Virus record (IMG/VR): IMGVR_UViG_3300048687_000113
Span: 32,001-96,000 of that record
DNA: 64,000 nt
From: a virus
Direction: 5' to 3' (one strand)
The position numbers and the translations under genes are program-made. Under the pieces are notes generated by a model. That model did not search any database. It was not told the origin of the DNA and saw only the letters and a program-made list of their open reading frames with translations. Positions 17,471-17,854 of the stretch are shown piece after piece (the first letter of the stretch is position 1; every line of letters begins with the position of its first letter).

Positions 17471-17854
17471 GGTCTCCCCGCGCGAGCGGGGGTGTACCGG
17501 TTGAAAGGCACGGCCGCGCTGTTGCCTGGATACTTTCCCCGCCGACGCGGGGGTGGTCCTTCTTTGTGTTTGATTGCAGGTAGGGATCTTGATTTGACCC
17601 CGCGCATGCGGGGATGGCTCGATTTCTAAGGGCATAGCACGATGTTCCCCGCGCAAGCGGGGATGGCCCCGCAGTTGAGAGAGCCAGTACTTGCTCCCCG
17701 CACACGCGGGGATGGTCCTGTAGTCAAGAGGGCTGGTATTTGCTCCCCGCGCACGCGGGGATGCTCCGCTTCGGCGGAGGTGGATCGAAACGGCATCTCG
17801 TGAGAGGTCCCTGAAGATCTCAGAAAACCGCTCCGCACACGCGGAGGTACGCGG
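17471..17854 (+). CRISPR. Orphan type I-E-like CRISPR mini-array, 8 variant 29-nt repeats, no cas genes in window
   Basis: Repeats at 17471, 17532, 17593, 17642, 17691, 17740, 17759 (overlapping the previous) and 17826; all keep a CCCCGC-N4-GCGGGG or CTCCGC-N4-GCGGAG stem and 8-nt handle; spacers 32,32,20,20,20,38 nt. Confidence 0.88.

Follow-up and report, generated by a model that had tools for sequence, protein, structure and literature searches.

The window analysed here, a 64,000-nt stretch of the virus record IMGVR_UViG_3300048687_000113, contains an array of eight type I-E repeat-like hairpins on the plus strand at 17471-17854, between a minus-strand gene that starts at about 17338 and plus-strand genes that start at about 18068. 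Read on the plus strand, its orientation is that of a type I-E repeat, in which the hairpin is followed by an 8-nt handle. With repeat frames of 29 nt beginning at 17471, 17532, 17593, 17642, 17691 and 17740, and perfect stems starting at 17476, 17537, 17598, 17647, 17696 and 17745, the inter-repeat lengths are 32, 32, 20, 20, 20 and 38 nt. All spacer coordinates and lengths given in the preliminary description of this DNA were reproduced in these frames.

All features of the array are on the plus strand. The leader (17339-17470), the presumed promoter region, is 84% identical to the leader of an orthologous prophage array; an E. coli-type promoter scan called no promoter in it. Repeat 1 (17471-17499) has the class 1 stem C4GC-N4-GCG4 and the 8-nt handle, and is followed by pseudo-spacer S1 (17500-17531, 32 nt), the first 13 nt of which are the reverse complement of the start of cas8e (cse1). 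Repeat 2 (17532-17560) and the AT-rich S2 (17561-17592, 32 nt) come next, then repeat 3 (17593-17621) and S3 (17622-17641, 20 nt) of a CreR-like family, repeat 4 (17642-17670) and S4 (17671-17690, 20 nt), repeat 5 (17691-17719) and S5 (17720-17739, 20 nt), and repeat 6 (17740-17768), the last class 1 repeat. Repeat 6b (17759-17787), with a class 2 stem at 17764-17779 and a UUCG-type loop, overlaps the final 10 nt of repeat 6 including its handle. S6 (17788-17825, 38 nt) is flanked by class 2 repeats, the second of which is repeat 7 (17826-17854) with its stem at 17831-17846. An intrinsic terminator-like hairpin of 11 pairs with a 3-nt loop, followed by a T-rich run, was recognised from its sequence and fold at 17857-17890; it was missed by the T-run rule of a simple scan. 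A fold of the whole array was discarded as structure evidence, as it is dominated by repeat-repeat pairing.

The window is part of a contig of 109,243 bp with 66% G+C, and the IMG/VR record has a completeness of 100% (CheckV). The contig carries genes for a large terminase, tail sheath, baseplate, head decoration, an integrase and a tape-measure-like minor tail protein, and its TerL shares about 55% identity with the terminases of the Streptomyces phages BRock, GiJojo, pSt2308, LuckySocke and Alone3 (Borockvirus). It is a complete Streptomyces myovirus. HMM searches of the entire 109-kb contig gave no match to Cse1, Cas6e, Cas7e or Cas1, and with respect to these four proteins the array is phage-borne and outside any CRISPR-cas locus. 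An integrase-like gene lies at 31436-32455 of the window. The phage is probably temperate, because a syntenic prophage is found in a Streptomyces contig, and the integrase-like gene is consistent with this.

A DNA search of window positions 16500-19000 against 50,697 phage records gave no match. Pfam and PHROGs searches with the ten ORFs around the array gave no Acr or Aca lead and found only an fn3/minor-tail-like protein. Immediately downstream of the array, the ORF at 18651-19640 has a fibronectin type III domain and weak matches to minor and major tail proteins, and it is kept in the prophage of the Streptomyces genome G208. About 1 kb upstream of the array, at 16378-16548, there is a second non-coding-looking tandem set, made of two 46-nt units at a spacing of 48 nt that are 83% alike and each have a short stem with a 13-nt interior; a further 10-bp hairpin is located at 16516-16548. 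G+C content falls to 0.55-0.61, against 0.66-0.72 around, at 14100-14900 and 19600-20000, which flank the early-gene region.

Repeat hairpins and related arrays

The 109-kb contig has six copies of the class 1 stem motif, all within this array. Among repeats 1-6, the stem columns are invariant without exception (12/12), against 3 of the 17 other columns, and identity from repeat to repeat is 72-95%. In repeats 6b and 7, one C-G pair of the stem is changed to U-A, and this paired change keeps the stem. The hairpin appears to be under selection, because the stem columns are invariant while most others vary and because stem changes are paired. Against the canonical repeat of three Streptomyces I-E arrays, those of the CreR-bearing hosts G227, G034 and G130, repeat 5 is identical at 26/29 positions, repeat 6 at 24/29 and repeat 4 at 23/29. 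In Rfam, only a match to CRISPR-DR28 below threshold was obtained (27.1 bits, with a cut-off of 35).

The sixth spacer, as listed in the preliminary description, stands provided that the variant hairpin at 17764-17779 counts as a repeat. We accept repeat 6b because its variant stem, shared with repeat 7, is that of the canonical repeat in the G032 array (Streptomyces I-E, nine repeats), and because the overlapped junction recurs in relatives, including L017 and L021. Repeats 1-6 match the common Streptomyces I-E repeat, and repeats 6b and 7 match a variant I-E repeat. The overlapped junction is best read as the seam of two sub-arrays built on two I-E repeat classes, and the presence of two classes suggests a single cassette aimed at several I-E variants.

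The closest relative of the array is found in G208, in which a 768-kb Streptomyces contig (contig 2) carries a related prophage with 70-84% DNA identity to window positions 7767-22451 (L302; G208:C2:90000-106000). An array lies at the syntenic site of this prophage. The leader, the S3 unit, the overlapped junction, an S6 homologue and the terminator are common to both arrays, and the first 12 nt of S3 are identical. Members of the unit families are also found in viral contigs and genomic islands that are otherwise unrelated (L017, L019, L022, L036, L110, G001 and G025). Since units are shared by related elements, the "spacers" are to be regarded as inherited modules rather than acquisitions. 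S4 and S5 are identical at 13 of 20 positions and all seven differences are transitions, so that the pair looks like a diverged tandem duplication of 49 nt; because of this duplication, the three 20-nt spacers do not stand for three independent events. A unit similar to S5 occurs in L084. No such hairpin array was found in five cultured Borockvirus relatives. Tandem copies of one 20-nt pseudo-spacer were seen in the viral mini-arrays of L034 (520-690), L035 (11231-11620), L026 and L016; in L034 there are three identical copies, and in L035 20- and 32-nt units alternate, in diverged pairs. A pattern scan of GTDB contigs was too loose to be of use, as it mostly returned canonical arrays of unrelated bacteria and its only mini-array was L230.

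Matches of the units in Streptomyces I-E loci

Nucleotides 1-13 of S1, reverse-complemented, are identical to the beginning of cse1 in G032, from the start codon through three further codons and one base (V-P-F-N), and the PAM position there is in the next Leu codon. The same cse1-start site is matched at 10/12 scored positions in G028 and G110, and the PAMs are CAG (G032), GAG (G028) and CAG (G110). About 0.003 chance matches are expected in the 221 kb searched, according to our own composition-based estimate, which is not tool output. In L017 and L110, units of the S1 family agree with S1 in the handle and almost completely in the first 14 nt, with unrelated distal halves. Such seed-proximal conservation with distal divergence would be expected of a guide that pairs through its seed-proximal part only, and on this pattern a 32-nt unit can also be a binding-only guide. 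The preliminary description had attributed the absence of cutting to the short length of the 20-nt units; this part of its argument was weakened, since pairing is confined to the first 13 nt in the 32-nt S1 as well. A match of an L017 32-nt unit to the cse1 coding sequence was set aside as chance, one 12/12 match being expected at that depth.

The S3-type unit pattern was scanned in 401 Streptomyces genomes, 167 of which have Cse1 (the unpublished G135 enters this tally only), and was found at seven places. Four of these (in G002, G227, G034 and G130) are located 650-700 nt upstream of cse1, just past cas3 and on the opposite strand. Each of the four elements consists of one degenerate repeat, a pseudo-spacer of 20-21 nt (20, 20, 20 and 21 nt) and one good repeat. 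Because this architecture matches that of CreR, a cas-regulating crRNA-like RNA (bioRxiv 10.1101/2023.03.10.532045), the four elements are read as CreR. A partner site with the PAM AAC lies a few hundred bases nearer cse1 in all four loci: CreR and the cas8e-promoter site are at about 745-825 and 1150-1175 of L260 (G002:C117:13666-18099) and at about 798-860 and 1163-1182 of L287, and both are likewise present in L306 and L307. In the pairing with these sites, positions 1-5, 7-11 and 13-15 match and positions 6 and 12, the bases that are flipped out by Cascade, do not. The target sites overlap a -10-like box of the cas8e promoter. The remaining three places (G001, G025 and G208) are away from cse1 matches; the one in G208 is prophage-borne, and G025 has no Cse1 match at all.

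Phage units are connected with these host elements through the S3 family. All 12 scored positions match between a unit of L017 and the promoter sites of G227 and G034, and at least 9 PAM-proximal bases are common to units of L017, L230 and L022 and the CreR of G227 and G034. S3 of the window has the length and the central motif of the CreR family, with an 8-nt handle that differs at a few positions. Its first 6 bases are unlike those of all four host CreR elements, the 12-nt identity being found only with the G208 prophage unit. By this resemblance S3 is placed in the host CreR pseudo-spacer family; among about 75 I-E loci, neither a host site nor a CreR carrying the seed of S3 itself was found. 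In a BLAST comparison with 33 cse1 loci, the intergenic regions of G002 and G227 revealed CreR in these two loci only. With four CreR elements among 401 genomes, 167 of them with Cse1, most potential hosts may be without the regulatory circuit imitated by S3. In Streptomyces, many cse1 matches fall within open frames of about 1450-1800 aa (e.g. G293:C1, G074:C113 and G271:C62), which look like Cas3-Cse1 fusions without intergenic room for CreR.

For S2, S4, S5, S6 and their homologues, a scan of about 75 I-E loci and of three cas contigs in full length gave no more matches than shuffled controls did. S2 and S6 had only chance-level matches in 50,697 phage records (E of at least 2, to unrelated enterobacterial or ssRNA phages), and the rest of the phage genome contains no match to any of the six units. 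A likeness of S2 to the cse1 leader of L336-L342 was not upheld by the target scan. A search for PAM-adjacent partial matches, as proposed in the preliminary description, yielded in the I-E loci scanned the site of S1 at the cse1 start and no site for S2-S6; the partial, PAM-flanked complementarity to a cas control region by which Cracr arrays are recognised was, in the window, found for S1 alone. S2, S4, S5 and S6 may be sponges, or guides for genes beyond those scanned.

Spacer lengths

It had been proposed for this array that spacer lengths are quantised in steps of 6 nt. In E. coli Cascade, each 6-nt step in spacer length reportedly adds or removes one Cas7 subunit, and the form shortened by 12 nt is said to bind and to interfere poorly. 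The 20-nt units of the window have the length of that -12 form; unlike those of the engineered E. coli guides, the natural lengths are only roughly stepped. Pairs of such hairpins at a distance of 33-60 nt were found by an IMG/VR scan in at least 119 viral contigs. The matches listed contain at least 140 distinct short spacers, with peaks at 14 (8), 20 (26), 21 (25), 25 (9), 26 (9) and 31 nt (15), which form the classes 14, 20/21, 25/26 and 31/32. Among these matches, length modulo 6 is strongly non-uniform (chi-square 41.6, 5 df) and the 20/21 class dominates, with 21 nt as common as 20 nt. The Rayleigh test on the same matches is no stronger for a period of 6 than for periods of 5-8 and was rejected as evidence for a period of exactly 6.

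Comparison of homologous units gave a mixed picture. Between the window and the G208 prophage, S2 differs by an indel of 12 nt (32 against 20 nt), in agreement with the 6-nt rule, and possible S2-like units of 14 nt, judged by eye, occur in L017, L022 and G025. S6 is 38 nt long in the window, against 37 nt in the G208 prophage, 27 nt in L017 and 31 nt in L021. Spacers of 14, 19, 21, 27 and 31 nt are present in other homologous arrays. Arbitrary lengths in homologous arrays had been named beforehand as a refuting observation; the lengths seen have peaks and are only roughly stepped. Steps of exactly 6 nt are favoured by the S2 indel and the possible 14-nt S2-like units; the S6 homologues of 37, 31 and 27 nt, the equal frequency of 20 and 21 nt and the absence of a unique period of 6 count against it. 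The argument from exact multiples of 6 was overstated, because S4 and S5 are duplicates and homologues are off by 1 nt or more. The simplest reason for the 20-nt length in this array is that it is the length of the host CreR that is mimicked. It is plausible that lengths close to 32 less a multiple of 6 are preferred, although not strictly.

Interpretation and known systems

Cracr arrays encode crRNA-like RNAs of phages and plasmids that mimic CreR or CreA (Liu et al., bioRxiv 10.1101/2024.10.29.618823). Such RNAs are loaded onto the Cas proteins of the host, where they compete with genuine crRNAs, and they repress cas promoters; with their shortened pseudo-spacers, they assemble complexes that contain fewer Cas7-family subunits (bioRxiv 10.1101/2024.10.29.618823). 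The mechanism has been published for types I-E, I-F and V-A (bioRxiv 10.1101/2024.10.29.618823; bioRxiv 10.1101/2023.03.10.532045). Liu et al. listed 20 I-E arrays of 2-3 units, mentioned targets in Actinomycetota, and used as their test case an I-E array of a Salmonella prophage with pseudo-spacers of 24 and 21 nt; their search relied on a match of at least 9 PAM-proximal bases to a CreR/CreA pseudo-spacer (bioRxiv 10.1101/2024.10.29.618823).

The locus of the window is probably a six-unit viral Cracr array directed against Streptomyces I-E systems. This reading draws on the complete phage, the selection on the hairpin, the conserved array, the host CreR targets, the S1 match and the published mechanism, and it implies that the phage most likely turns the I-E Cascade of its host against the host's own cas8e. 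Against it stand the PAMs of the S1 sites (CAG and GAG), which differ from the AAC of the CreR sites, the lack of a host site for the S3 seed, and the lack of targets above shuffles for S2, S4, S5 and S6 in about 75 I-E loci. The earlier suggestion that the short units are non-cutting guides, acting as repressors or as Cas sponges, is supported in silico for S3, through the CreR promoter targets of its family, and for S1; the four units for which no target was found may repress something else or act as sponges.

The in-silico evidence consists of array anatomy, conservation, CreR homology and target sites, from which we infer transcription, processing, loading and repression as follows. A plus-strand transcript of the array would extend from the conserved leader as far as the terminator (17857-17890), and host Cas6e would cleave at the base of each hairpin, so that each product would have an 8-nt handle, a pseudo-spacer and a 3' hairpin. 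These products would assemble with host Cas5e, Cas7e, Cas8e and Cas11, the 20-nt units with about two fewer Cas7 subunits than a normal guide. Pairing with host DNA would be limited to 13-15 PAM-proximal bases, allowing binding without licensing of Cas3. S3-type guides would occupy the -10 region of the cas8e promoter, as host CreR does, and S1-type guides the cas8e start codon. The outcome would be tighter repression of the Cascade operon, together with titration of Cas proteins away from real crRNAs.

If the hairpins were a pure decoy, a Racr-like sponge that absorbs Cas6e and Cas7e into aberrant complexes through repeats separated by sequences without DNA target, one would understand why the stems are the best-conserved part of each unit and why four of the six pseudo-spacers have no detectable target, and RNA anti-CRISPRs that mimic repeats are known (PMC10651486). 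However, the first 12-14 nt of S1 and S3 are kept between phages while the distal part diverges, which is the pattern of a seed, the S3 family is homologous to host CreR with promoter targets, and S1 matches the cse1 start in three loci. Sponging is moreover already part of the Cracr mechanism, from which a pure decoy differs solely in denying any targeting; we hold such a decoy to be unlikely.

It is less likely still that the array works as a mini-CRISPR, using host Cas proteins against competing phages or plasmids for superinfection exclusion. Virus-borne mini-arrays of such a kind have been published (PMC11656645), and two units of the window have the canonical length of 32 nt. One of these is S1, which is kept between phages over its first 14 nt only and matches a host cas gene; the other, S2, had like S6 only chance-level matches in the phage records, the "spacers" are inherited among related elements, and no Cas1 was found on the contig. 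A functionless, decaying fragment of a host CRISPR array captured by the phage could account for repeats that differ (72-95% identity) and for the absence of the array from cultured Borockvirus relatives. Decay is nevertheless difficult to reconcile with invariant stem columns between variable flanks and compensatory stem changes, with a leader and terminator that are conserved in an array syntenic in a related prophage, or with unit families that recur in unrelated viral contigs, and seems most improbable.

Two extensions of the Cracr reading are tentative and, as they stand, rather doubtful: that S2, S4, S5 and S6 guide the silencing of other host genes, or that the approximately 6-nt stepping reflects selected Cascade sizes. 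In the former case, the genes silenced through host Cascade may be those of other defence systems or of CRISPR-guarding toxins. In the latter, steps of 14, 20, 26 and 32 nt in viral I-E mini-arrays could possibly give Cascades of defined size that escape a host or phage factor, by analogy with AcrIF24 of type I-F.

If the Cracr reading is true, the array is a clear Streptomyces case of an RNA-guided anti-CRISPR that hijacks a host regulatory circuit, of greater size and more composite structure than the I-E arrays listed to date. The analysis also provides a host-side map, with CreR and cas8e-promoter sites in four Streptomyces I-E loci, and guide-target pairs open to testing, S1 on the cas8e start and the S3 family on the -10 box, which could explain the plating of many actinophages on I-E-bearing hosts. 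About 20 nt appears as the dominant natural size of I-E pseudo-spacers among the matches listed from at least 119 viral contigs. A possible use of such units is as compact natural CRISPRi guides in Streptomyces engineering.

Among known systems, a functional CRISPR array is a poor model, as the repeats are only 72-95% alike, the spacers are duplicated or inherited, protospacers for S2 and S6 were not found in the phage records, and Cas1 was not found on the contig. The array resembles Racr (Camara-Wilpert et al. 2023, PMC10651486) in that phage-encoded repeat mimics would divert Cas proteins. A Racr is a solitary repeat without guide function, whereas the window has eight clustered repeats with seed-like conserved units and host targets. 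Host CreR has the same unit architecture and the 20-nt pseudo-spacer, and the S3 family shares with it a similar handle and the central motif, but CreR is a single unit between cas3 and cas8e, and the units of the window are phage-borne, multiplied and diversified. With Cracr arrays the locus has in common its position on a phage away from a cas locus, degenerate repeat hairpins that resemble the host CRISPR repeat with its Cas6 hairpin and 5' handle, shortened pseudo-spacers, presumably several units per transcript, the resemblance to CreR, and partial PAM-proximal pairing with the cas8e promoter, here through the S3 family. It differs from them in having six pseudo-spacers instead of the 2-3 of Cracr I-E arrays, in its two repeat classes joined by an overlapped repeat, and in an S1 family of full 32-nt length that would aim at the cas8e start codon and not at the CreR site. 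A further difference is its Streptomyces host. The Cracr kind has already been described in a recent preprint, and what is new here is an unusually elaborate array in a Streptomyces phage.
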